Assembly: GCA_937996585.1 (NCBI GenBank)
Contig: CALKUW010000042.1
Coordinates: forward strand, 1-44,718
Reading direction: 5' to 3'
DNA from: an uncultured Flavobacteriales bacterium
GTDB lineage: Bacteria > Bacteroidota > Bacteroidia > Flavobacteriales_D > Sanyastnellaceae
Length of the DNA: 44,718 nucleotides
The position numbers were made by a program, and so were the translations under genes. Below the pieces are notes generated by a model. It did not search any database. It was not told the origin of the DNA and saw only the letters and a list, made by a program, of their open reading frames with translations. How positions within the stretch are numbered: the first letter of the stretch is position 1; every line of letters begins with the position of its first letter. Shown in pieces: positions 1,994 to 33,985 of this stretch.

Positions 1994-3424
1994 TCAGCGC
2001 ACCAGCTTGAAGGTCTTTTGGCCTTCGGGGGTGCGCACTTGAAGGATCAACGCGCCCGTTCGCTGGGACCGGATCATCCCATCCTGGGACGTTCCGGCAT
2101 CCACCAGTCTTCCCGTCATGTCGGACAGGCGCCACTCAACGGGCGCTGATGTGCCTGTGATTTGCCAGCCACCGACACAGGGCTTGCAGCTCCAGTCAGG
2201 CTTTGCAAGTGAAGCTGTGCTGGAGGTTGTGATGGTGCCTTGCTTGTAAAGGATGGCGTTGTCGGACGGCCGTTGGAAGACGAGGTGCACGGTGTTGCCT
2301 TCGATGCGGATGACGGGGCGCCGGCTGTGTCCGGACAGTTCCTCGGTGGCAGAAAAGGCCTGCGAGGACCACTGTGCCATGCCGGCCGCGTCATTCGACC
2401 CCACGGCCGTCATGACCTGATATCCTCCATCGCTGCGTTCCCAGGCGACCACACTGAAGTCGCCATCTGCGTCGATGGAGGGGTTGTTTTCCGTGACATC
2501 AACGTCTGGTGCGATGCGGTCCGTCCCTGTCAGTTCCCATGCATCCGCATCCACGGTGCTCCAGTAGGTGCGGGCGCCACCCTGTGCAGCGGACATGTAT
2601 ACCATGGCCACGCTTCCGTCACCCAGAAGGGCGACCTCCGCTTCCGAGGCCGGACAGGAATTGATGTTCCAATCCGTTTCATCCACGTCGAGTGACTCGG
2701 ACCAGTTGCCCGCGCCATCCGTTCGGGCGAGGTGGAAATCCCGGATATTCGCGTTGTTGTTGCGCACGAGGTTGTAGCGCTGGCCCTCCCGCATGAAGGG
2801 CATGGAGGCGCAGCATTCGCAGACGGCATTTCCGGGGAATACAGCGCCTGCATCGACGGCAGGGGAGAAGCTCTCGGTGGTCGGATTCCAATACAGTACG
2901 CCTTCGAGGGCCGGTGCGTCGCCCCATTTCACCGCCACCCAAGGATGGCCTTCCGCGTCGAAGGCGGGCACCGGCATGAAGTGGTCCTCCGTGGCTTCCG
3001 GCGCGATGGATATGGGGTCGCCCCAGGTGGTACCGCCATCCTCGGAGATGACGACCCTTCCTCCGGTCGCCCACTGCCCTGAAATCTGGTAGCCCACAGC
3101 CACCTTGTTGCCCTGCATGGCCATACGCGGCCCCTCAGGATCGTTGATGAAGAGGCCCGTTTCATCCGTGACCGCCACAGGATTCGAGAAGCTGCTGCCC
3201 GTCCAACGGGTGCAGTAGAGCCCGCCGCTGCTGCCGGATTTGCCATGAAGGATGACAGGGTGGCCATCCGCGTCGAGCTCCATGCGTAGGTTGAGGTACC
3301 CATGTTCCGCAGCCGAGATGGAGGCTTCTGTTTCCCATTGGATGATGGGGACCTGTCCGTGTAGCGTTGGCAGGTTCAGTACCAGTGCAACCAACAAGGG
3401 AGGAAAGGCGGGAAGTGACTTCAT
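1994..3424 (-). CDS. Secreted BNR/sialidase-like beta-propeller protein with a T9SS C-terminal sorting domain
   Basis: ORF 1994..3463. The preferred start is ATG 3424, which gives the signal peptide MKSLPAFPPLLVALVLNLPTLHGQ. There is one Asp-box (SEDGGTTW). The C-terminal ~70 aa, ending LILQVRTPEGQKTFKLVR, resemble a T9SS sorting domain. Confidence 0.7.
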   Translation of the reverse strand: MKSLPAFPPLLVALVLNLPTLHGQVPIIQWETEASISAAEHGYLNLRMELDADGHPVILHGKSGSSGGLYCTRWTGSSFSNPVAVTDETGLFINDPEGPRMAMQGNKVAVGYQISGQWATGGRVVISEDGGTTWGDPISIAPEATEDHFMPVPAFDAEGHPWVAVKWGDAPALEGVLYWNPTTESFSPAVDAGAVFPGNAVCECCASMPFMREGQRYNLVRNNNANIRDFHLARTDGAGNWSESLDVDETDWNINSCPASEAEVALLGDGSVAMVYMSAAQGGARTYWSTVDADAWELTGTDRIAPDVDVTENNPSIDADGDFSVVAWERSDGGYQVMTAVGSNDAAGMAQWSSQAFSATEELSGHSRRPVIRIEGNTVHLVFQRPSDNAILYKQGTITTSSTASLAKPDWSCKPCVGGWQITGTSAPVEWRLSDMTGRLVDAGTSQDGMIRSQRTGALILQVRTPEGQKTFKLVR

Positions 3425-12332: not shown

Positions 12333-14864
12333 TCATATAGCCGACAAATCAGGGGCTTGAACCCACCCCGTGTTGCCATTGGCCAGTCTGATCTGCAGCC
12401 AATTGCCCTGCTCGCCGAGCACCTCGACAACGGTGCCTTCATGCAGGATGAACAGATCGGAGGCATCGGGCCCTTCGGATGGGCTGCTCTTTACTTCGAT
12501 TCGCGGCGCCATGATGACGGCCCCATCGTCGGCCTTGCTCCGCATGTGGGTTTCCCGACTCATGAACCCGAGCACGATGGCCACCGCACCAATGGTGGGC
12601 GAAAGGATGACGAGCAGCCTGCGTATTGAGACATCCCGGATGCCCATCCTGAGCAGGAGGAGCATGCATGCCAGCGCCCATGCAATGAGTGAACCGCAGG
12701 TCCAAGCACCTAGACGATGCTGTGCCGTGAGTTCCCGCCACAACGGGGCAAGGGCGATTTCCGGCATTTCCTCGATGCGGTCCACTACGGCGGATCGGGC
12801 CAAGAGCAGGTTGGCCTGGAGGTCGTCGTCGCTGGGGCGGATGCGCCGTGCTCGTTCGAAGTGCAGGATGCTCGGCCCAATCCGCCCCGACTTGTATTCG
12901 GCCACGCCCATGTTGTATTCGAGCTCGAAGGAAGTCCAGCTCAAGGCCACCTGTTCGTAGTACTGGATGGCCGTTTCCAAGTCGCCTTCGAGGTAGGCGG
13001 TATTGCCCTCCTGGAAGGTGGTCAGCGCTCCGGAGGCATCCGGGGCTGCCATCACGGCATGGACGCTTCCGCTGGCGAGGAGAAGGATGGCCATGCCCTT
13101 GCCCACCGGTCCCGCGCCTGGGCGGCGGGTGGATTTCCCCAAATGGCTTGCCAGTCGTTCCAATTGTGCGGCACATTCCGTCGCATCGGGCGCCCCGGGC
13201 GCGAATCGCCCCCTGTCCAATGTGGCCAACAGGTCAATCCATTCCGCGGCGGTCTCTTCGCCCAAGGGAACCAACGCCGCACGGTACCGTTCCGTTCCGG
13301 CATCACTGAGTGGAATGTCCAAACAGCCTTGAAGGAAGGCGTGTGCGGCATGGCCCAAAGCGTCCAGCGACCCTGAACCGGACCGTGCCTCGGCCAAGGC
13401 GCGCTTCAGGTCGGTCTTGGCTTTCTTTCGTCTCGCCACACCAGGGTCCAAGGCCTCCTTCTCGCGCCTCCGCTGCCAGGCGCCGCCAGCCAGAAGGAGC
13501 AAAGGTGGAAGGGCCCAGAGTGACATGTGAAAAGGGCTGCCGTAGAACGGCACCGTTTTCGGTTTCAATTCCGTCTCCGTTCGAATGAAACGCATGTCCC
13601 GGGTCAGGATGGTCACATCGGTCTTGCTGTTGAACCCGAACGCCGGGCCCTCGGCAGTGGCATTGCCCATCACGTCGAGCACGATCGGGCGGCTGTTCAA
13701 CGTGACGAACCGGTCCAGGGCGTGGTCGAAATAGGACAGTTCAGGCAGTTGGATTTCGAACCGTCCCTCTGACCGCGGAATCACGAGGTAGGTCTGTGTT
13801 CGCCGTCCCCTTTGTCCCTGCACATCCGTGGTGATCCTGTCTTTGATTTCGGGATCGAATACTTCCAGGTCCTTGGGCCAATCCATCTCAGGTGCCCCGA
13901 TCAAGGGCAGGTTGCCCTTGCCCCGAAACTCCAGGACGAGGTTGACCGCTTCATTGACCTTCGGTTGTTCGTCGCCCTCCTTGCGCCAGCTGATCGTCAA
14001 ATCCTGGAACGTGCCGAGTGATGTGGCCGGAATGGGGGTGGGCAACGGAGCCACTTCAATGTTGACTGCCCGCGCATCCGCGGAGACGGGCCTCGAATTG
14101 AAGAAGTTGATCCGTTGCTGGGCATCCACGTTGAAGCCGGCGATTTCCAGCGTCCCGGTGCGGGTGGGGTAGAGGATGTCCGTTCGCACCGTGGCGACCT
14201 GTACCCTGCGGCCGTCCACGATGGTGTTCTCCCAACGCGGATCCTCTCCCTCGACGGTTTCCTTCCACACTCCCGACAATTCTGGGAAGCTGTAATTCCG
14301 GACATCCACCGCCTCCATTCGGTTGTAAATCTTGAATTGCACCCGCACCGGTTCTCCAATGTGCACAGAGCGCTTGTCTACTTCAATGACGGCTTCGAAG
14401 GGGGAGTTGGCGCGGCTCGCCTGACTGCCGGCCTTCACCACTTGCAGATTGATCGCCTCCGTCCGAAGCAGGCCCTGGCGGGATTTGAATTCCAAGGAGG
14501 GAATCCTGAGCAATCCGACATTGGAAGCCACGGCGGAATAGGTGTACCCCCGTTTCGAGGACATGGCGCCGTTGACAATCTGGGTGCTCGAGGAAGTAGA
14601 AGGCCCGCTGAGGAAACGGATGCCCGATATGGAGGGCGGTGTTTTGAATTGAACGCTCGCATCCTGGAATTCGAACGTCAACCGGAATGGCTGTCCCGCC
14701 ACCACGGGATTCCTGTCCACCACCAGCGAGGCGCTGCCCTGGCTCCATCCCGCCATGGGGATGCTCAGGAGCATGGCGAGGAGCCATCCCCCCGAGTGCA
14801 GCAGGATGCGGCGCCGTGCGCATGCGCCCGCATGGAATACCTGTGGATTCGTTTCCATCGACAT
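12333..14864 (-). CDS. batD: BatD-like (oxygen tolerance) protein fused to a BatE-like TPR + SH3 module
   Basis: About 843 aa. The start is ATG 14864 or GTG 14867, and both overlap the upstream stop codon. The N-terminal signal/TM and BatD-like extracytoplasmic region are followed by a TPR-like stretch (FQEGNTAYLEGDLETAIQYYEQ, YNMGVAEYKSGRIGPSILHFERARRIRP). TM segments and a C-terminal SH3b-like segment (HEGTVVEVLGEQGNWLQIRLANGNTGWVQAPDL) complete the protein. Confidence 0.8.
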   Translation of the reverse strand: MSMETNPQVFHAGACARRRILLHSGGWLLAMLLSIPMAGWSQGSASLVVDRNPVVAGQPFRLTFEFQDASVQFKTPPSISGIRFLSGPSTSSSTQIVNGAMSSKRGYTYSAVASNVGLLRIPSLEFKSRQGLLRTEAINLQVVKAGSQASRANSPFEAVIEVDKRSVHIGEPVRVQFKIYNRMEAVDVRNYSFPELSGVWKETVEGEDPRWENTIVDGRRVQVATVRTDILYPTRTGTLEIAGFNVDAQQRINFFNSRPVSADARAVNIEVAPLPTPIPATSLGTFQDLTISWRKEGDEQPKVNEAVNLVLEFRGKGNLPLIGAPEMDWPKDLEVFDPEIKDRITTDVQGQRGRRTQTYLVIPRSEGRFEIQLPELSYFDHALDRFVTLNSRPIVLDVMGNATAEGPAFGFNSKTDVTILTRDMRFIRTETELKPKTVPFYGSPFHMSLWALPPLLLLAGGAWQRRREKEALDPGVARRKKAKTDLKRALAEARSGSGSLDALGHAAHAFLQGCLDIPLSDAGTERYRAALVPLGEETAAEWIDLLATLDRGRFAPGAPDATECAAQLERLASHLGKSTRRPGAGPVGKGMAILLLASGSVHAVMAAPDASGALTTFQEGNTAYLEGDLETAIQYYEQVALSWTSFELEYNMGVAEYKSGRIGPSILHFERARRIRPSDDDLQANLLLARSAVVDRIEEMPEIALAPLWRELTAQHRLGAWTCGSLIAWALACMLLLLRMGIRDVSIRRLLVILSPTIGAVAIVLGFMSRETHMRSKADDGAVIMAPRIEVKSSPSEGPDASDLFILHEGTVVEVLGEQGNWLQIRLANGNTGWVQAPDLSAI

Positions 14865-16846
14865 CACCAGTCCTTCTCGATTTTCGACTTCTTGCCCTTG
14901 TTGCGCTTGGCGTTTTCCTGAGCCTGCAATTTGGCACGAAGGGCGGCTTCGTTGCGCTCAAGCAAGTCAAGGATGCGCTCGGCATCTGCGGGGTGTATGC
15001 GTCCTTCCTGCTGTTCACCTTGATCAGGGCTGTCCTGTTGACCCTGGCCTTGATCTTGTTGTTGGTCCTGCTGCTGGTCGTTCTGCTGCTGGTCGCCTTC
15101 CCCTTGCTGGTCGTTCTGCTGCTGCTGGTCCTGTTGCTGGTCCTGTTGTTCGTCCTCTTGCTGGTCGTTCTGCTGTTGCTGGTCCTTCTGCTCGTCCTGT
15201 TGCTCGTCTCCCTGCTGTTGCTGTTCCTTCTGCTCGTCCTGTTGGTCGTCTCCCTGCTTTTGCTGTTCCTGCTGTTGCTGTTCCTGCCGCATCGACAACG
15301 CCAAACTGAGGTTGTGGCGGGTGTCAGCATCCATCGGGTCTAGCCGCAGCGCTTCCTTGTATGCACCTATGGCACCTTCCACGTCCTGACCGCCGAGCAG
15401 TACGTCGCCCACATTGCTCCACGCATCCGATTTCAATCGCGGGTCTTCGGCCTGGGATGCGGCGCGCTGAAAAGCCCTCATGGCGGCTTCGCCCTCACCT
15501 TTGCCGGCCAGCGCCAATCCTCTGTTCAGGGACAATTGACCGGGATCCGCACCCGACCATCCTTCAGCCGATTGGAACAGGCTGTCCGCCTTGGCGAAGT
15601 CGCGGTCCACCATGGCCTCGGTGCCGGCCACGGCCTGCGCCTTCGTGCCGCCAACCTTGTACGATTGGGCACGGGCGGTTCCGTTGCAAAGGATGAGAAC
15701 CAGCATGATGCCCAAGGCTGCGGTTGAACGCCGTTGGGCAAGTGGCCACAACGATTCCGCCAGAAGCAATGCCCATGCCACCAGGAAGAACCAGGGGAAG
15801 TGATGGACATAATCGGTGTAGGCCACCTTGTTGGTTTCACCCGTTTCGAGGTCGGCAATGCTGTCCAGGAAAGGGTCGAGGTCCACGAAGCCCTGATTGG
15901 CCCGCGCATAGGTGCCGCCCCCGGCTTCGACCATGGAAACGAGCATCCGCTCATCGAGCGTCGAGACCACTGGCTGGCCGCTGGCGTCCTCCTTATAGCC
16001 GGTTTGCCGCCCGTAACGGTCAAAAACCGGAATGGGGCCGCCTCCTTCGCTGGCCATACCAATGGCATGGACCTGGATGCCGCCTGCAGCCGCCTCATCG
16101 GCCCGGGCGAGGGCATCGTCCTCGTGGTTCTCCCCATCCGTCAGGACGAGGATGATCCTGCTCGCTTGACTTTCATCATCAAATGAGGATGTGCAGAGCT
16201 CGATGGCCGATCCCACGGCCGTTCCCTGCACCGGGATGGCTTCTGGACCGATGGCGTCGAGGAAGAGCTTGACTGCGGCCAGGTCGAGGGTGAGGGGCGC
16301 CTGAACGTAGGCGTCTCCCGCAAAGACCACCAGACCGGCGCGGTCTCCATCGAGGCGGCCAACCATCCGTTCAATGGTTCGCTTGGCCAGGTCCAGTCGG
16401 GCCATTCCGACGTCTTCGGCCATCATGGAGCGGCTGACATCCAAGGCCACCATGATGTCGACGCCTTTGGCTTCGACTTCCTTCAGGCGTGTACCGAGCT
16501 TGGGGGCGAGCATGCCGAGGGCGAGAATGGCCACCCCGGTTCGCCAGAGAAGGAATTTCCAGACCGATCGGCGCGGGCGGGCCTGGGGCCATAAGGTCTC
16601 GATCAGTGCAACATCCAATGCCTTGGACATGCGCCGCTGCTTCCAGAGGTAATGACGCGCGAAGAGCAGCAGACCCATGGGGGCCACCAACAGGGCTGGC
16701 CAGGCACCGGGCATGTGCAATTCGAATTGCGGTGCGGCCGAGCGCACCAGGAAATACAGTGCGACGATGAAGGCCCAGAAGACCAATTCGAACAGCACGA
16801 GCCCCGTGACGTGGCTGAACACCTTGTATTTGCGGGGTTCATTCAT
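14864..16846 (-). CDS. batB: BatB-like VWA-domain membrane protein fused to a BatC-like TPR protein with a Q/D/E-rich tail
   Basis: The preferred start is ATG 16846 (MNEPRKYKVF), which forms an ATGA overlap with the batA stop. It has N-terminal TM helices and a VWA domain with MIDAS motif DVSRSM. Two TM segments and a TPR region (DAWSNVGDVLLGGQDVEGAIGAYKEALRLDP) follow. A ~96-aa Q/D/E-rich stretch and a basic tail ending KSKIEKDW complete the protein. Confidence 0.82.
   Translation of the reverse strand: MNEPRKYKVFSHVTGLVLFELVFWAFIVALYFLVRSAAPQFELHMPGAWPALLVAPMGLLLFARHYLWKQRRMSKALDVALIETLWPQARPRRSVWKFLLWRTGVAILALGMLAPKLGTRLKEVEAKGVDIMVALDVSRSMMAEDVGMARLDLAKRTIERMVGRLDGDRAGLVVFAGDAYVQAPLTLDLAAVKLFLDAIGPEAIPVQGTAVGSAIELCTSSFDDESQASRIILVLTDGENHEDDALARADEAAAGGIQVHAIGMASEGGGPIPVFDRYGRQTGYKEDASGQPVVSTLDERMLVSMVEAGGGTYARANQGFVDLDPFLDSIADLETGETNKVAYTDYVHHFPWFFLVAWALLLAESLWPLAQRRSTAALGIMLVLILCNGTARAQSYKVGGTKAQAVAGTEAMVDRDFAKADSLFQSAEGWSGADPGQLSLNRGLALAGKGEGEAAMRAFQRAASQAEDPRLKSDAWSNVGDVLLGGQDVEGAIGAYKEALRLDPMDADTRHNLSLALSMRQEQQQQEQQKQGDDQQDEQKEQQQQGDEQQDEQKDQQQQNDQQEDEQQDQQQDQQQQNDQQGEGDQQQNDQQQDQQQDQGQGQQDSPDQGEQQEGRIHPADAERILDLLERNEAALRAKLQAQENAKRNKGKKSKIEKDW
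15002..15289 (-). repeat. Low-complexity imperfect tandem repeat encoding a Q/D/E-rich linker
   Basis: The protein stretch is RQEQQQQEQQKQGDDQQDEQKEQQQQGDEQQDEQKDQQQQNDQQEDEQQDQQQDQQQQNDQQGEGDQQQNDQQQDQQQDQGQGQQ. At DNA level it consists of reiterated ctgctggtc/ctgttgctg units. Confidence 0.9.
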
Positions 16847-17841
16847 GGCAGACTCCGGAAAATGACATGTCTGAACAGGGCTTCGGCTCCAAGCAGGAAC
16901 AGGGAAAGCCATCCGAAAATGGGGAACTCCTCTGTGCGCTTGTTGTAGCGGAAGACGTTGAATCGGGTCTTCTCGAGCGTATCGATTTCCTCGTAGACCT
17001 CCTTCAACTTGGCCCCGCTGGTGGCCCTGAAGTAGCGCCCGCCCGTTTCGTCCGCAATGCGCTTCAGGGTGCCCTCGTCAATGTTGACTTCCACCCAGTC
17101 GTAGATGAAGCTGCCATCCGGTCGCTTGCGCACCGGGCTCTTTGCCTTGCCTACCGTCCCGACCCCGACCGTATAGACCCTGATGCCCTCGAGGGCGGCC
17201 AATTGAGCGGCGTCCAGGGGTTCAATCTGGCCGCGGTTGTTCTCGCCGTCGGTGATGAGGATGACGATTTTGCTCTTGGCCTCGCTCTTGCGCAGCCGAT
17301 TCACGGCAGTGGCTAATCCCATCCCGATGGCCGTTCCTCCTTCCACCATCCCCGTCTCGAGGCCTGCCAATCCATCAAGGACCACCCGATGGTCTGTTGT
17401 CAAGGGGACGCGGGTAAAGCTTTCGCCCTCATAGACCACCACCCCGACGCGGTCGAATGGGCGGTCTGAAACGAATTCCCTGGCCACCTCCTTGGCGGCT
17501 TCGAGTCGATTGGGCCGAAAGTCCTTGCTCAGCATGCTGGCCGAGACATCCATGGCCATCACGATGTCAATCCCCTCTCGGGTCATGTTCTCGACACTGG
17601 ATGCGCTCTGTGGTTGGGCGATGACCAGCACCATCATCCCCAGCCCTGCAGTGCGCAAGGTGTCCGGTAGCAGCGGGAGCCATTGGTCGCGACGGGGCGG
17701 TTTCAGATCGAGGTGCTGGAGGTTGATGCGGAAAACGGGCCATGCAATGGGGCGCCAGATGCGCCAAAGGCTCCAGGCGGCCACCACGGTCCACAACCAG
17801 AGGGCCAGGGGGCGGCCCCATTCAAACCGGAGTTGGGCCAT
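16843..17841 (-). CDS. batA: BatA-like VWA-domain membrane protein
   Basis: The track ORF runs to 18249, but that stretch overlaps the upstream gene. I prefer ATG 17841 (MAQLRFEWGRPLALWLWTVV), which gives 332 aa, a typical BatA size. Alternative ATGs lie at 17931 and 17940. The MIDAS motif is DVSASM, followed by ILITDGENN and a C-terminal TM segment. Confidence 0.85.
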   Translation of the reverse strand: MAQLRFEWGRPLALWLWTVVAAWSLWRIWRPIAWPVFRINLQHLDLKPPRRDQWLPLLPDTLRTAGLGMMVLVIAQPQSASSVENMTREGIDIVMAMDVSASMLSKDFRPNRLEAAKEVAREFVSDRPFDRVGVVVYEGESFTRVPLTTDHRVVLDGLAGLETGMVEGGTAIGMGLATAVNRLRKSEAKSKIVILITDGENNRGQIEPLDAAQLAALEGIRVYTVGVGTVGKAKSPVRKRPDGSFIYDWVEVNIDEGTLKRIADETGGRYFRATSGAKLKEVYEEIDTLEKTRFNVFRYNKRTEEFPIFGWLSLFLLGAEALFRHVIFRSLP

Positions 17842-28190: not shown

Positions 28191-28661
28191 TCAACTTTCG
28201 CCGGCGAAGGCAGCCAGCACCTCTTTGGCGTGGTCCTTGACCTTGGGTTTGCGGATGATGGCAGCAATGGTTCCGGCCTCGTCGATGCAGAAGGTCGTGC
28301 GGTGTGTACCGTCGTATTCGCGGCCCATGAATTTCTTCAGTCCCCACACCCCGAACAGGTCCTGCAGGGCGTGGTCCTCATCCACGAGCAGATCGAAGGG
28401 CAGTTCGAACTTGTCGATGAACTTCCGGTGGGACGCAGCGTGGTTGATGCTCACGCCCAGCACCTTGATGCCGGCCTTTTCGAGGTCGGCCATGCCGTCC
28501 CTGAGGCTGCAGGCTTGGTTGGTGCATCCGGGTGTGTTGTCCTTGGGATAGAAATAGAGGACGAGCTTCTTTCCGCTGTAGTCCTCCAGACGGTGGGTCT
28601 TGTCATTCTGGTCCAGGGCCTCAAAGGCCGGTGCGGCTTCGCCAACGTTCAAATGGTGCAT
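28191..28661 (-). CDS. bcp: Thioredoxin-dependent peroxiredoxin Bcp
   Basis: 156 aa with the peroxidatic motif FYPKDNTPGCTNQAC, followed by LGVSINHAASHRKF. Confidence 0.92.
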   Translation of the reverse strand: MHHLNVGEAAPAFEALDQNDKTHRLEDYSGKKLVLYFYPKDNTPGCTNQACSLRDGMADLEKAGIKVLGVSINHAASHRKFIDKFELPFDLLVDEDHALQDLFGVWGLKKFMGREYDGTHRTTFCIDEAGTIAAIIRKPKVKDHAKEVLAAFAGES

Positions 28662-28750
28662 GTCTTGGAAACCGAAATGTGCAGGTGTGGTTCAACGGTG
28701 TGTGCAAGTTGAGCGGGAAGGGAGCGGTTCGGGTACATTCGCCTTTCGTG

Positions 28751-31198
28751 ATGTACGTCGATGTCATCCTGCCTTTGGCCCTGCCCGGGCTGCTGACCTA
28801 CGGTGTGCCGGAGGAGGATTCCGCATCCGTCAAGCCCGGCTGCCGGGTGGTCGTTCCCCTGCGCGGCAAGCGGCTGCACACGGCGATCGTGCGCAGGGTG
28901 CACGCCGATGCTCCAGGCCACCGGACGGACGATTACCTGACCCTGCTCGATGAAGCCCCTTTGATTTCGGAGCAAACACTCAGGTTCTGGGACTGGATGG
29001 CCGGTCACTATTGCTGCGGTCCAGGAGAAGTTGCCCTCGCCGCATTGCCATCGGGCATGCGGTTGGCATCCGAGACCAAGCTGGAGTTGGCACCGGATGC
29101 GGATGACCTCGACGAGACCACCCTGGATGATCGGGATTTTCAGGTGGTGGATGCCCTGCGCCTGCGTGGAGCGCTGACCTTCAAGGAGGTCGGGCAGCTC
29201 CTCGGGGTGGCCAATCCTGCCGCTGTCTTGCACCGATTGGTCGAGGCCGGTTGGGTATTGTCGACGGAGGAATTGAAATCGGCACCGCGGCGGAAGGCGG
29301 TCTCCATGGTGCGGTTGTCCGAGCGGGCGGTCAAGGATGAGCGCTGGCTGTCCGATGCCCTGGACGAATTGGATGCCCGCGCACCGTCCCAGTCGCGCGC
29401 CATGATGGCCCTGCTCGATCAGCCTTCTCCTCAAAGGGGCGTTCCCATGGCGGAATTGACGCGCAGGGAGGGCATTACCACTGCCCTGTTTCGCCGATTG
29501 ATGGAGAAGGGATTGGTCTTCACCTTCAAGCAGGCCCCTTGGGAAGTCCCCAGCGAGGAGGAGGTGGAGCCCCTGGCGGCGCTGAGCCCTGCCCAGCAGC
29601 AGGCCCTGCGTTCCACGCGGGAAGGGCTGGGTGAAGCGGGCCTGGTATTGCTCGAAGGGGTCACCGGTTCCGGCAAGACGGAGGTCTACACCCACCTCAT
29701 CCACGAGGTTCTGGACGTTGGACGGGACGCCCTTTTCCTCGTTCCGGAAATTGCCCTGACGACCCAGCTCATCGTACGCCTTCGCCGGTTTTTCGGTGAC
29801 CGGCTCGAAGTCTACCACAGCCGGTTCAGTCCCCGGGAGCGCACCTCAACTTATCGGAGGGTGGCGGCCCGAGAGGGTAGGGGGCGTCTGATGGTCGGAG
29901 CGCGCAGTGCCATTTTCCTGCCCTTCACCAACCTCGGTTTGATCGTGGTGGATGAGGAGCACGATGCCAGCTACAAACAGCAGGATCCTGCACCGCGCTA
30001 CCAGGCCAGGGATGCGGCGGCCATGCTGGGCCACCTGCACGGAGCCCGTGTGGTGCTGGGGTCGGCCACCCCGTCATTGGAGGCGCGGTGGGCCGTGCAA
30101 TCTGGACGTGCCGAACATGTTCGCCTGAGCGAGCGCTTCGGGGGTACGTCCCTGCCCGAGGTAGGGTTGATCGACTTGCGCAAGGCCCACAAGCAGCGGG
30201 CCATGGAGGGCCATTTCAGCAAGGCACTACTCGATGCACTGCGGGACACACTGGCTTCGGGCAAGCAGGCCATCCTGTTCCAGAATCGCCGGGGCTTTTC
30301 TCCTGTCTACCAGTGTCGGACCTGTGGATGGGTGCCCGATTGCGAACGTTGTGATGTCACCCTGACCTACCACAAGTTCCTGCGTGATCTGCACTGCCAT
30401 TATTGTGGATACCGTCAGGGCGAGCCCCAGCAGTGCCCACGCTGTGGGAGCGAGGAGGTAGAGGCCAAGGGGCTGGGTACGGAGCGGATCGAGGAGGAGG
30501 TAGCCGCTCTGTTTCCGGACATCGCCGTCCAGCGCATGGACCTCGATACGACCCGGAGTAGGACCGGGCACGAGAAGATCATCCGGGCGTTCGAGCGCGG
30601 GGAGATACAGGTCCTGGTTGGAACACAGATGGTGACCAAGGGGCTTGATTTCGAGCACGTGGGCCTGGTTGGGATTCTGCAGGCCGACCGCATGTTGCAC
30701 TATCCGGACTTCCGCGCGTTGGAACGCACATTCCAGTTGCTTACCCAGGTGGCCGGGCGCGCGGGCAGGAGGGGAGAACAGGGAAAGGTGCTCATCCAGA
30801 CTTTCGACCCGGAGCATTGGGTCTTCGGACACGTGGTCTCGCACGATGCCGAAGCCATGGCCAAAGCCGAAATGCAGGAGCGCCATTCCTTCGGCTATCC
30901 GCCCGTTCAGCGGCTCATCCGCCTGATACTGCGTCACCGGGATCCCCACCTTACCAGGGAGGGGGCTGCGGCACTGGCCGGACGGTTGCGCAGCCGGTTC
31001 GGTGGCAGGGTCATCGGTCCGGAGGAGCCGGGCATTGCCCGCATCAACGATCAGTATCAGCGGCACATCCTGCTCAAGTATGAGCGGAGCGTCGATGCGG
31101 GACAGGTCAAGGCAGCCATGCAGGAAGACATTGCGGCCATGCGGCAGGTGGATCGGTACCGGCCCATTCGGGTCATCGTAGATGTCGACCCATATTAA
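28751..31198 (+). CDS. priA: Primosomal protein N' (replication restart helicase PriA)
   Basis: The ORF opens at 28532. The conserved start MYVDVILPLALPGLLTYGVPEE is at ATG 28751. It has Walker A GVTGSGKTEVY and DEEH. The Cys-rich Zn motifs are CRTCGWVPDCERCDVTLTYHKFLRDLHCHYCGY and CPRCGS. Confidence 0.95.
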   Translation: MYVDVILPLALPGLLTYGVPEEDSASVKPGCRVVVPLRGKRLHTAIVRRVHADAPGHRTDDYLTLLDEAPLISEQTLRFWDWMAGHYCCGPGEVALAALPSGMRLASETKLELAPDADDLDETTLDDRDFQVVDALRLRGALTFKEVGQLLGVANPAAVLHRLVEAGWVLSTEELKSAPRRKAVSMVRLSERAVKDERWLSDALDELDARAPSQSRAMMALLDQPSPQRGVPMAELTRREGITTALFRRLMEKGLVFTFKQAPWEVPSEEEVEPLAALSPAQQQALRSTREGLGEAGLVLLEGVTGSGKTEVYTHLIHEVLDVGRDALFLVPEIALTTQLIVRLRRFFGDRLEVYHSRFSPRERTSTYRRVAAREGRGRLMVGARSAIFLPFTNLGLIVVDEEHDASYKQQDPAPRYQARDAAAMLGHLHGARVVLGSATPSLEARWAVQSGRAEHVRLSERFGGTSLPEVGLIDLRKAHKQRAMEGHFSKALLDALRDTLASGKQAILFQNRRGFSPVYQCRTCGWVPDCERCDVTLTYHKFLRDLHCHYCGYRQGEPQQCPRCGSEEVEAKGLGTERIEEEVAALFPDIAVQRMDLDTTRSRTGHEKIIRAFERGEIQVLVGTQMVTKGLDFEHVGLVGILQADRMLHYPDFRALERTFQLLTQVAGRAGRRGEQGKVLIQTFDPEHWVFGHVVSHDAEAMAKAEMQERHSFGYPPVQRLIRLILRHRDPHLTREGAAALAGRLRSRFGGRVIGPEEPGIARINDQYQRHILLKYERSVDAGQVKAAMQEDIAAMRQVDRYRPIRVIVDVDPY

Positions 31199-31226
31199 TC
31201 CCACTGATTTGGTATAATATAATTTT

Positions 31227-31328
31227 ATGCCTTATCTTCATGTCACCATGCATGACACGTGCTGCATCATCTGTTGTTGTTGTCCGACCTCCTCGGGCAA
31301 GTTGTCGTCATGTCCGGGAATGATCTGA
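31227..31328 (+). CDS. Candidate 33-codon Cys-rich small ORF (leader peptide, small peptide precursor, or non-coding)
   Basis: My own translation gives MPYLHVTMHDTCCIICCCCPTSSGKLSSCPGMI followed by a stop. It is too short for the ORF track. The AT-rich patch GGTATAATATAATTTT sits immediately upstream, and a strong terminator lies 35 nt downstream. There is no homology evidence. The (TGT)4 run could be a simple repeat. Confidence 0.3.
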   Translation: MPYLHVTMHDTCCIICCCCPTSSGKLSSCPGMI

Positions 31329-31362
31329 TACCACGCATTCCCTCCTTTTGACCTCCAACTCC

Positions 31363-31387
31363 GCCCGGCCCTGAAGCCGGGCTTTTT
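31363..31387 (+). terminator. Rho-independent terminator
   Basis: GCCCGGC-cctgaa-GCCGGGC is a perfect 7-bp G/C stem, followed directly by TTTTT. The orientation fits the plus strand only. Confidence 0.8.
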
Positions 31388-31530
31388 CGTGTCCAGAAAT
31401 GTCCTCCCCAGCCACCCCACATCCGCAGAGCGGAACCAACAAAAGTCATTCCATCCCCCAACGACCGTCATCGAAAGCCCAACCGACCCGACGGAAAATG
31501 CAACAACCAACTAACAAAAAAGCTGCCGCC

Positions 31531-32568
31531 ATGAGTACTTCCATCCTCCCCATCCTGCCTCCCCACGCGGGTGGCCAAGCTCCCCTCCGAAGTGGAAACG
31601 GGGATGCCCAACCGACCATTCACATCATTCACGAAAACGACGCCTGGGTTGTTCCGCTGCGTGCTGAACTCGACGCACGGGGACTGCCCTACAAGGAGTG
31701 GTTCATAGATGAACTCGCCATCGACCTCGAGGCCGCACCGCCCGAGGGCGTGTTCTACAACCGGATGAGTGCGAGCTCCCACACAAGGGACCACCGCCAC
31801 GCCTGGGAGGCGACCCGCGGATTGATGGCGTGGCTTGAAGCCCACGGACGGCGGGTCATCAACAACCGCCGCGCGACCGGACTCGAAGTGAGCAAGATCG
31901 AACAGACCATTGCCCTGAAGCAGTATGGACTGCTCGTGCCGCGCAGTATGGCTGCGACCGGTATCGATGCCCTGCGTGATGCCGCTGCGAAGTGGGACGG
32001 CCCCTTCATCCTCAAGCCCAACCGCGGTGGAAAGGGGACAGGGGTCCGGCTCATCAGGAACACCCACGAACTGGAGGCGGTCATTGCCGAATTCGGAGAC
32101 TACACCCTTGACGGAACGGTCATCCTCCAGGAGTACATCCGCCCGGCGGACGGGCGCGTATTGCGGCTCGAGTTCGTCGGGGGCGAACACGTTTACACCG
32201 TCAGCATCGACGCGGGCGGTGGATTCGAGCTCTGTCCGGCGGACGGCTGCCAGATCGGCAATGCCTACTGCCCGGCCGATGGGCGCGCACAGTTCGAGGT
32301 GCTGGAGGACCACAAGCCCGAGCAATTGAAGCAATGCCTCGCTTTCCTGAAGGCTTCCGGCATGGAGGTGGCGGCCATGGAGGCCGCCCCCGATGCAGAG
32401 GGCAATCTGAAGTTCTATGATGTCAACATCAACACGAACTACAACGCCGCCGCCGAGGCGCGTGCGGAGGTGAAGAGAACCGGCATGGGAGCCATTGCGG
32501 ACTTCCTCGGCCGTGAGTTGCAATCCGTTCAGGCCGCAGCGGCCCGGGCACAACGCATCGCATCATGA
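31531..32568 (+). CDS. ATP-grasp domain ligase (RimK/glutathione-synthetase-like)
   Basis: The ORF opens at 31399. Candidate starts are ATG 31531 (A-rich upstream context) and ATG 31498. The motifs are FILKPNRGGKGTGVRLI, VILQEYI, and the C-terminal FYDVNINTNYN. It also carries an unusual duplicated motif, CPADGCQIGNAYCPADG. Confidence 0.75.
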   Translation: MSTSILPILPPHAGGQAPLRSGNGDAQPTIHIIHENDAWVVPLRAELDARGLPYKEWFIDELAIDLEAAPPEGVFYNRMSASSHTRDHRHAWEATRGLMAWLEAHGRRVINNRRATGLEVSKIEQTIALKQYGLLVPRSMAATGIDALRDAAAKWDGPFILKPNRGGKGTGVRLIRNTHELEAVIAEFGDYTLDGTVILQEYIRPADGRVLRLEFVGGEHVYTVSIDAGGGFELCPADGCQIGNAYCPADGRAQFEVLEDHKPEQLKQCLAFLKASGMEVAAMEAAPDAEGNLKFYDVNINTNYNAAAEARAEVKRTGMGAIADFLGRELQSVQAAAARAQRIAS

Positions 32569-33707
32569 CGGGCGTGGTAGGCCAGGCCCACTGGCGGACG
32601 GTGCGCCAGACCCATGTTGCCGTTGTGGGCGGTGGCATCATGGGGGCCATGACGGCAGCCCACCTGATCCAACTCGGTGCCGAGGTCACGGTATACGATC
32701 CGAATCCCATGGGTACGGGGCCGGGAGCCTCGGTGGACACCGGGCGGAGTTTCCGCGTGCACTACGGGACCGACAAGGAGCTCGTGGCCCACGCCGTGCG
32801 ATGCTTCGGCCTCTGGAAGCACTGGGAACTCACCTTGGAACGCCCACTGCTCCAAGCCACCGGCAAGATGTTGCTCGAAGAGCAGGGCGACCGCCATGCC
32901 TTCGAAAGCTGGCAGACGTTGCGCCGCATGGGTTTGCCTTCGGACCGCCTCGCTGCAGGAGCCGTGGCAGCCGAGTGGCCTGGTTTCAAGGCGGGCGCGG
33001 CCACGGTTGATCGCCTCGGGGGCGTGCTCGAGCCGCACATCATCCTCGATGCACTGCACGTCTGGCTGAAGTCCAAAGGGGCGAATTTCAGGGGTGAAGC
33101 GATGGATGTGGCGACGAAGGCCGTTACGGATGCCGAAGGCGCTCGGTCCTACGATTCCGTCGTGTTGACGGCAGGTGCCTGGACGCGGCGTTTCGTGAAC
33201 GCCTCCATGGAGGTGACCCGGCAGGAACTGGTCTATTTCGACGCATCCGCCCTGGGTGCCCGACTGGAGAAGCTCCCCGTATTCAGCCACATGGAAAGCG
33301 GCTTCTATGCCATTCCAACGGCGCGGGATGGCCGCATCAAAGTAGCCAATCACCACCCCGGACCGGTGGGTCACCCTGATGGAGATGACCGCAAGGTTAC
33401 GCCCGCATTCGAGCGCGCTGCACGGAAGTTCCTGGCTGACCACCTTCCGGAACTCGCCGATGCCGAGGTGGTGCGGAGGTATGTCTGCTTCTACAGTGGC
33501 ACGGCGGACCGCGATTTCATCCTCGATCGGACGGACGAGGGCCTCATCGTTGGGGCGGGCTTCAGCGGCCACGGGTTCAAGTTCTCCCCACTTGTGGGCC
33601 GCGTCCTGGCCCAGTTGGCCTTGGGAATCCAGCCGGAAATCGACCTCGCGCGATTCGCGCTGGACCGTCCGGCCCTCCAGGGCAACCTGATGAAGGTGGC
33701 CGTCTGA
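32565..33707 (+). CDS. FAD-dependent amine oxidase of the monomeric sarcosine oxidase / N-methyltryptophan oxidase (SolA) family
   Basis: It has an ATGA overlap with the ATP-grasp gene. The Rossmann motif is VAVVGGGIMGAMTAAHL. YVCFYSGTADRDFILD aligns with the covalent-flavinylation Cys region of MSOX/MTOX, and GAGFSGHGFKFSPLVG is the family C-terminal motif. Confidence 0.82.
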   Translation: MTGVVGQAHWRTVRQTHVAVVGGGIMGAMTAAHLIQLGAEVTVYDPNPMGTGPGASVDTGRSFRVHYGTDKELVAHAVRCFGLWKHWELTLERPLLQATGKMLLEEQGDRHAFESWQTLRRMGLPSDRLAAGAVAAEWPGFKAGAATVDRLGGVLEPHIILDALHVWLKSKGANFRGEAMDVATKAVTDAEGARSYDSVVLTAGAWTRRFVNASMEVTRQELVYFDASALGARLEKLPVFSHMESGFYAIPTARDGRIKVANHHPGPVGHPDGDDRKVTPAFERAARKFLADHLPELADAEVVRRYVCFYSGTADRDFILDRTDEGLIVGAGFSGHGFKFSPLVGRVLAQLALGIQPEIDLARFALDRPALQGNLMKVAV

Positions 33708-33712
33708 TCCGT

Positions 33713-33985
33713 TCAGGTGTCCTCCTTGGTGCGCCTCGCTGCCTGCACCCAGACCCGCGCAATCACGGCCATGAGCAAGGTGAAGGCCAAGGTGCAGGCA
33801 GCGGCGTAGCCCCACGTGCCCTCGGGCTCGGGTACGTCCAGGCTGTCTGCACGCAGTTGGGCGAGCCGCATGCGGGCATTGCGCACGATGAACCAGCTTC
33901 CCCACGCGACCATGGGCGCCAACACAAGCCAGGCCTTGAACCACGGTTCATAAGCGGTGCGGTCGATGTCGGGATTGGCCTTCAT
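33713..33985 (-). CDS. Small membrane protein (two predicted TM helices)
   Basis: The start, ATG 33985, forms an ATGA overlap with the yggS stop. The protein begins MKANPDIDRTAYEPWFKAWLVLAPMVAWGSWFIV and contains a second hydrophobic segment, YAAACTLAFTLLMAVIARVWV. Confidence 0.55.
   Translation of the reverse strand: MKANPDIDRTAYEPWFKAWLVLAPMVAWGSWFIVRNARMRLAQLRADSLDVPEPEGTWGYAAACTLAFTLLMAVIARVWVQAARRTKEDT

Follow-up and report, generated by a model that had tools for sequence, protein, structure and literature searches.

The element described here lies in a stretch of 44,718 nucleotides (nt) from an uncultured Flavobacteriales bacterium (contig CALKUW010000042.1, positions 1 to 44,718), below called the window. 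The host belongs to the Bacteroidota and has a G+C content of 61%. On the + strand the window carries priA, the stop codon of which occupies positions 31196-98; a sequence check confirmed that priA ends at 31198. The gap between priA and the following gene, which encodes an ATP-grasp ligase, measures 332 nt if the latter starts at 31531. This start is common to the relative L084; an in-frame ATG further upstream, at 31399, is not conserved. The gap contains a candidate promoter, a small open reading frame (sORF) with a run of Cys codons and an intrinsic terminator. These features and the two genes behind them are as follows.

31208..31211, + strand: TTTG, putative -33-like promoter element, 21 nt 5' of the -7-like box.
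31213..31223, + strand: AT-rich patch with two overlapping TATAAT hexamers (31213-18 and 31218-23), situated in the promoter spacer.
31233..31240, + strand: TATCTTCA, -7-like box (consensus TAnnTTTG) at a conserved position before the sORF ATG.
31248..31328, + strand: leader sORF of 26 codons, MHDTCCIICCCCPTSSGKLSSCPGMI-stop; about 20 distinct relatives share its start, Cys run and stop.
31260..31283, + strand: regulatory Cys codons, TGC TGC at 31260-65 and four TGT at 31272-83; variation is confined mainly to the third position.
31281..31287, + strand: region 1, UGUCCGA, comprising the last Cys codon and CCGA; it pairs with region 2 in the full-length fold of minimum free energy (MFE).
31293..31304, + strand: region 2, the 5' strand of the anti-terminator, with UCGGGC(A) (31293-99) in helix H1 and AGUUG (31300-04) in helix H2; it pairs with 31356-68 in nascent folds.
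31307..31352, + strand: scaffold hairpin seen in the folds, with helix H3 (GUCA 31307-10/UGAC 31349-52) and an apex stem (GGGAAUG 31316-22/CAUUCCC 31336-42).
31356..31369, + strand: region 3 according to the folds; CAACU (31356-60) forms the 3' strand of H2, and GCCCGGC (31363-69) is the terminator 5' arm.
31376..31387, + strand: region 4, with GCCGGGC (31376-82) as the terminator 3' arm and U5 behind it, from the sequence and a terminator scan.
31388..31530, + strand: C/A-rich spacer or 5' untranslated region with no recognisable promoter in it.
31531..32568, + strand: regulated gene 1, coding for an ATP-grasp ligase in the RimK/LysX clade, the only gene found after the Cys leader in all three lineages.
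32565..33707, + strand: regulated gene 2, a flavin adenine dinucleotide (FAD) amine oxidase resembling monomeric sarcosine oxidase (MSOX)/SolA, which overlaps the ATP-grasp stop by 4 nt.

A genome scan with priA revealed one close relative only, the marine metagenome-assembled genome L001 of a 'Flavobacteriales bacterium', with a priA 77% identical. The useful relatives were found via homologues of the ATP-grasp protein, which led to contigs with identical gene order, and a scan of metagenomes added further loci. In total about 20 distinct versions of the gap were obtained, and several tests were performed on 21 sequences. The order promoter, sORF, intrinsic terminator and ATP-grasp gene was conserved at every examined locus with an ATP-grasp protein at least 60% identical (about 30 loci). 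The T-run of the terminator begins 44-59 nt past the sORF stop in 21 of 21 sequences. The 143-nt spacer of the window (31388-31530; GC skew about -0.45, open in frame from ATG 31399) is not conserved. It is missing from L001, L087 and L094; in these, no more than 10 nt separate the T-run from the ATP-grasp ATG. Thus, several relatives have no space for a separate promoter of the ATP-grasp gene.

Two AT-rich marine lineages, L113 (35% G+C) and L124 (41% G+C), encode an ATP-grasp protein that is only about 50% identical to that of the window. Both possess an equivalent but unalignable unit consisting of a poly-Cys sORF, a terminator of unrelated sequence and the ATP-grasp gene. Their flanking genes are unrelated, with the unit of L124 following a gene for an ABC-type ATPase, and the oxidase gene, which is present downstream in the GC-rich clade, is absent from both. 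Almost all of the other approximately 60 distant ATP-grasp homologues are not accompanied by the unit. Since the neighbours in L113 and L124 are unrelated and most distant homologues lack the unit, the unit goes with the ATP-grasp gene. The Cys leader was kept, or has re-arisen, before this gene in three lineages with otherwise unrelated neighbours. A further distant, GC-rich locus, L129 (1279-1390), shows a possible Cys-rich sORF (MMMCAACTCCCTGG...) 5' of the ATP-grasp gene, but a terminator is not obvious there. This sORF may represent a degenerate leader or a different version of it.

An earlier note on this DNA had described a longer sORF, MPYLHVTMHDTCCIICCCCPTSSGKLSSCPGMI-stop (31227..31328), which opens with an ATG at 31227 and has 7 Cys in 33 residues. 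This reading frame is present. However, its ATG is not conserved and lies 5' of the predicted transcription start, and the conserved start is at 31248. Leaders starting at the equivalent position have 26 codons in most relatives and 22-27 overall. They carry CCCC or CCCxCC, with the exception of L111, which has CCC only. All six Cys codons of the window leader are found within its first 12 codons. In the six-frame translation of the window the motif CCCC occurred 3 times, compared to 0.05 expected from shuffles, and Cys represents about 1% of the residues in the window proteins. Cys is encoded by TGT in 76% of cases in the leaders of the GC-rich clade; the genes of the window use TGC for 70%. 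The leader favours TGT, which is the minor Cys codon of this genome.

The substitution pattern was analyzed in the thirteen leaders with 26 codons. Entropy at the three codon positions amounted to 1.31/1.54/1.41 bits before the Cys run and to 0.98/0.99/1.05 bits after it. Variation mainly at the third position was limited to the Cys codons. In L106 and L107 a 1-nt deletion past the Cys run gives an entirely different downstream peptide from a nucleotide sequence that is kept; a second deletion returns the frame to the same TGA. Because the coding-type pattern is restricted to the Cys codons and the frameshift in L106 and L107 leaves the nucleotides intact, the peptide itself is not selected. 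The conservation of the sORF had been raised as a question in the earlier note: start, Cys codons and stop are kept in about 20 relatives, and the frame is broken past the Cys run in these two. As judged from the sequences, the leader features fit a regulatory leader and not a functional peptide or a precursor of a ribosomally synthesized peptide with post-translational modification (RiPP).

Four leader-peptide ORFs of 33-41 amino acids were looked up in a collection of 15 billion proteins, and none of them was found there. Gene callers overlook the leader; consequently, such elements are systematically missed in metagenome annotation. In L081-L083 the callers placed a 49-amino-acid ORF in the attenuator gap (approximately 3263-3412, - strand), which is probably spurious.

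Bacteroidota use neither Shine-Dalgarno-led initiation of translation nor classical -10/-35 promoters. The flavobacterial sigma-A box, TAnnTTTG, spans -12 to -5 (PMC9723704). Inspection by eye detected a box of this type ending 4-8 nt 5' of the sORF ATG in 21 of 21 sequences, and in L087 and L094 it is a perfect TATATTTG. Based on the span of the sigma-A box, the transcription start is predicted 0-3 nt 5' of the ATG in most sequences. In the window it probably lies near 31245, and the leader mRNA would be near-leaderless. The TTTG at 31208..31211 was assigned as the -33-like element by analogy to the Bacteroidota promoter consensus (PMC9723704); many relatives have a TTG at a spacing of 20-21 nt from the -7-like box. 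The earlier note had regarded the two TATAAT hexamers as the promoter. They exist at the positions given above, but they lie in the promoter spacer and are probably not a -10 box. The heptamer GTATAAT is kept in the main subclade only and is absent from L096, L098 and L105-L111. Furthermore, a scan for sigma-70 promoters (TTGACA/TATAAT as -35/-10 with 16-18 nt spacing) revealed no site on the + strand. A sigma-70 TATAAT promoter was rejected due to the negative scan, the TAnnTTTG preference of the Bacteroidota sigma-A factor and the restriction of the patch to one subclade.

The intrinsic terminator consists of a 7-bp G/C stem (GCCCGGC 31363-69/GCCGGGC 31376-82) and T5 at 31383-87. This hairpin had already been recognized in the earlier note; the terminator scan agrees, and all 21 sequences have a terminator. 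The MFE fold of the full-length leader RNA exhibited the 1:2 pairing, the scaffold hairpin and the formed terminator (z = -2.6). The scaffold is extended by H2 (31300-04/31356-60). Its apex stem encloses the stop codon (31326-28) in the window, and in the relatives the stop is located in or beside this stem. The sequence of the stem varies, for example GAGAAUG/CAUUCUC in L001 and AUGGA/UCCAU in L109.

When the 3' arm of the terminator was omitted from the folding, which mimics the nascent RNA, region 2 paired with 31363-68 and stacked on the scaffold. The nascent conformers with 1:2 versus 2:3 pairing were near-isoenergetic in the window (-32.0 versus -32.8 kcal/mol). Among 21 independent nascent folds, 19 showed the terminator 5' arm paired with the sORF segment 12-24 nt past the last Cys codon. 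A ribosome whose A site is on one of the Cys codons of the run would cover region 1. In a simulation with such a ribosome mask on the Cys codons, the terminator arm was predicted to be paired upstream in 21 of 21 sequences. A segment of the sORF also pairs with the terminator arm in the folds of L113 and L124, each of which has its own, unrelated arm. The terminator 5' arm has its conserved partner in YCGGGY (31293-98) plus the adjoining helix. A different anti-terminator had been suggested before, CCGGG at 31314-18, which is indeed complementary to CCCGG at 31364-68. This segment is not conserved; L001 has CACGAG, L087 GAGAGA and L094 AAGAGA there.

The anti-terminator was compared to dinucleotide shuffles. 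Its stabilisation in the window was -9.3 kcal/mol versus -2.6 ± 2.1 kcal/mol in the shuffles, of which 1.5% reached the window value. The same figure was at or below 1.5% in 16 of 18 sequences. MAFFT misaligned the variable spacer, and RNAalifold recovered the invariant helix only. Therefore, alignment-free shuffle and permutation tests were used. A first matrix of cognate versus non-cognate duplexes, computed with the invariant helix, was uninformative. After removal of this helix, cognate strands gave -7.12 kcal/mol versus -5.51 ± 0.45 kcal/mol for strands permuted between sequences (p ~1.5e-4). Positions 19-25 past the last Cys codon show two to four pair types each, and H2 has several pair types per position. 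H1 was kept in 14 of 14 aligned sequences with changes from C-G to U-G only. A search of Rfam 15 yielded 0 matches in the window at the gathering score, and at a permissive threshold the best matches, all below that score, cover the terminator hairpin only.

The layout is that of a classical 1:2/2:3/3:4 attenuator, backed by the shuffle and permutation tests. Its parts, their spacing and the alternative pairings are conserved, and the peptide is without selection. We therefore consider it likely that the element is a ribosome-mediated leader-peptide transcription attenuator which reads the availability of cysteine. Attenuation at Cys codons had been proposed in the earlier note. This principle is best supported by the comparative data; the start codon, promoter and anti-terminator named there had to be replaced.

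The proposed mechanism would start with the Bacteroidota-type promoter, from which RNA synthesis would begin about 0-3 nt before the ATG at 31248, and a ribosome would translate the 26-codon leader. When charged tRNA-Cys is scarce, this ribosome would stall in the Cys run and cover region 1 (31281-87), leaving region 2 free. Free region 2 would stack on the scaffold (31307-52) and pair with region 3 (31356-68) as the latter emerges. The 2:3 pairing would pre-empt the terminator, and RNA polymerase would read into the ATP-grasp and oxidase genes. With ample cysteine the ribosome would reach the stop codon (31326-28) and melt the scaffold, region 2 could re-pair with region 1 behind the ribosome, the 3:4 terminator (31363-87) would form and transcription would end. 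If no ribosome translates the leader, the 1:2 pairing is expected to form first, followed by the 3:4 terminator and again the end of transcription.

Several points weigh against this interpretation. The transcription start, the stalling and the read-through are all deduced from sequence. The anti-terminator of L124 was no better than its shuffles, and that of L113 was marginal at 6%. H1 and the terminator are nearly invariant, and RNAalifold detected 0 double changes in the MAFFT alignment. The lack of compensatory pairs in this output is due to the core helix, which is invariant apart from the C-G to U-G changes. Covariation support comes from H2, H3 and the structure-aware comparisons, and all these statistics ignore phylogeny. 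In the simple thermodynamic model a ribosome at the stop codon does not on its own unpair 2:3 in most GC-rich sequences. Consequently, termination at ample cysteine leans on kinetic and steric arguments. Finally, no link to cysteine was demonstrated for the ATP-grasp protein or the oxidase in annotation, homology and structure searches.

The transcript of about 140 nt could also act mainly in trans or have a dual function as a small RNA (sRNA), with the sORF being incidental or secondary. It has its own promoter, a structured body (z = -2.6) and a strong terminator, and one report describes released attenuator RNAs and leader peptides of Sinorhizobium which act in trans (PMC7298713). However, the sORF start, the stop position and the Cys codons are kept even in the unalignable L113 and L124, and the unit always lies directly 5' of one gene family. 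Rfam provided no match, and a role in trans would supplement attenuation rather than replace it. We regard an sRNA as the main function as quite unlikely; a second role of this kind is conceivable.

A functional Cys-rich peptide was the other alternative given in the earlier note. It would be either a RiPP precursor for the ATP-grasp enzyme and the flavoenzyme or a metal- or redox-binding peptide; the leaky terminator would then set the ratio of precursor to enzyme. The sORF adjoins the ATP-grasp gene in every lineage, its length is kept at about 26 codons, and the closest structural relatives of the ATP-grasp protein (LysX/ArgX, RimK, PsnB, PruB, AMdnB) act on peptides or proteins. The substitution pattern speaks against it. 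Apart from Cys there is no selection at the amino acid level, codon-position entropy is flat, and the N-terminal part is the most variable, which argues against a recognition leader. The C-terminal part is frameshifted in L106 and L107 with the nucleotides kept, and the conserved nucleotides coincide with RNA pairings. Asp and Glu are absent from several of the peptides and the C-terminal residue is variable, so that a conserved carboxylate for the ATP-grasp reaction is missing. Moreover, thousands of members of the ATP-grasp family, at about 50% identity and in other phyla, have no such sORF. A graspetide-type RiPP precursor was rejected because only Cys is conserved and neither a leader recognition motif nor a conserved core of Thr/Ser/Lys plus Asp/Glu was found. 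Thus, a functional peptide is improbable.

That the hairpin is only the terminator of priA, with the sORF and the AT-rich patch as chance intergenic features, is very improbable: although the hairpin is the first intrinsic terminator 3' of priA and would also halt read-through from priA, it is located 165 nt past the priA stop, a promoter-like element and an sORF, both conserved, precede it, L113 and L124 carry sORF, terminator and ATP-grasp gene in a different genomic context, and the shuffle statistics oppose chance.

A ribosome-mediated attenuator invites comparison with the classical attenuators of amino acid operons, of the trpL, hisL, pheL and leuL type of E. coli. Like these, the element includes a short leader ORF in which codons for the sensed amino acid stand in tandem, and it uses the minor codon. 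It also shares the four RNA regions with mutually exclusive 1:2, 2:3 and 3:4 pairings, the intrinsic terminator directly 5' of the regulated genes and the stop codon within the scaffold/anti-terminator structure. Unlike the E. coli attenuators, it senses cysteine, it occurs in a Bacteroidota host without Shine-Dalgarno use, and its leader mRNA is probably near-leaderless. Furthermore, the regulated genes are not a recognised biosynthetic operon, and there is no sequence homology and no Rfam match.

The earlier note knew of no described Cys-codon attenuator; such systems have in fact been published (PMC1262725, bioRxiv 10.1101/834739, PMC8632094). In Actinobacteria, leader peptides with Cys codons were predicted 5' of cys and cbs operons, without terminators (PMC1262725). 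In mycobacteria, leaderless polycysteine sORFs were shown to control the translation of downstream genes, the 'Cys ribulon' (bioRxiv 10.1101/834739). The window element resembles the latter in the polycysteine tract within a very short, unannotated sORF which is the first cistron and probably lies at or near the mRNA 5' end, and in the proposed remodelling of downstream RNA structure by stalling at the Cys codons. However, the mycobacterial elements control translation by masking or unmasking a downstream ribosome-binding site and have no terminator (10.1101/834739), whereas the window element has a strong conserved intrinsic terminator and an anti-terminator. Annotated genes of cysteine metabolism occur in the mycobacterial operons and not in the window operon, and the phyla are unrelated with no homology between the elements.

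A terminator is part of the uORFC-8-2 motif of Rhodobacterales, which was predicted 5' of cysS as a ribosome-mediated attenuator with tandem Cys codons (PMC8632094). In common with the window element, it has conserved tandem Cys codons in an upstream ORF followed by a terminator stem and a U-run. However, uORFC-8-2 has two Cys codons at about positions 14-15 within the first stem and is confined to alpha-proteobacteria and to the position 5' of cysS, in contrast to the 4-6 consecutive Cys codons, the different structure and the different target gene of window-type elements. Overall, two types are combined in the element: its near-leaderless polycysteine sORF follows the mycobacterial pattern, and its terminator/anti-terminator mechanism the enterobacterial one. 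It shares the logic of the known Cys-codon systems and differs in sequence, phylum and target gene. As far as our literature search reached, it appears to be the first Cys-codon transcription attenuator reported in Bacteroidota. For marine flavobacteria it would provide a compact, testable sensor of cysteine.

With more than 7,700 matches the ATP-grasp family is large, and it is highly conserved across phyla; its family motifs are IIHENDxW and YNRMSASSHTR. An AlphaFold model of the window protein (predicted local distance difference test score, pLDDT, of 85) most closely resembled LysX/ArgX, RimK and the graspetide ligases PsnB, PruB and AMdnB, at 15-20% identity. The model places the protein in the clade that acts on peptides or proteins, and the structure search with it indicated no substrate. 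Distant homologues in other genomic contexts (P0039, P0061, L112) were inspected for a clue to function, and nothing was gained. The Cys and Met content of the regulated proteins revealed no sulfur-sparing signal. The link of the ATP-grasp protein and the oxidase to cysteine metabolism is so far purely regulatory.

The LdmS protein of S. aureus is an ATP-grasp L-Asp-L-Met ligase, and its operon carries Cys/Met regulatory elements (PMC9486568). In analogy only, this is another ATP-grasp ligase under control linked to sulfur-containing amino acids. In contrast to the element described here, the regulatory elements of the LdmS operon are not a leader peptide, and LdmS was absent from the sequence and fold matches of the window ATP-grasp protein.

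The leader ties an ATP-grasp family with thousands of members to cysteine status and thereby hints, on the regulatory side, at its function. We tentatively suggest, as a possibility on the doubtful side, that the Cys leader marks this RimK/LysX-like family as part of an unrecognised cysteine-related pathway. If this were true, the ATP-grasp enzyme and the MSOX-like oxidase could serve in cysteine salvage or supply or in the synthesis of a thiol compound, induced by low levels of charged tRNA-Cys. Marine Bacteroidota would then possess a cysteine regulon with sensing by the ribosome, as a counterpart of the mycobacterial 'Cys ribulon'.

Residues ~234-251 of the ATP-grasp protein contain an LCPxDxC...FCP motif. 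In 31 homologues from several phyla C235 and C240 are invariant and C247 is nearly so. AlphaFold modelled this segment at pLDDT <50. It could be a metal or redox site.

The proposed attenuator and its two genes are surrounded by the following genes.

Flanking genes, - strand: recA and bcp.
Flanking gene 5' of the gap, + strand: priA.
Beyond the oxidase gene, - strand: yggS, a DUF1015 gene and a 2-hydroxyacid dehydrogenase gene.

The longest ORF of priA starts with a GTG at 28532, encodes 888 amino acids and overlaps bcp on the minus strand (28532-28661). Since the priA products of the relatives have 815-839 amino acids, the true priA start is probably near 28700. A reading frame on the + strand at 15054-15389, within the minus-strand ORF 14864-16912, gives a long, repetitive Cys/Ser/Trp-rich translation which includes CCCC; this probably reflects a repetitive coding region read out of frame. 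Directly 3' of yggS a small ORF of about 90 amino acids was observed (33713-33985, - strand). It has no Pfam match on record in the syntenic relatives with annotated genes, and it was called in most of them.

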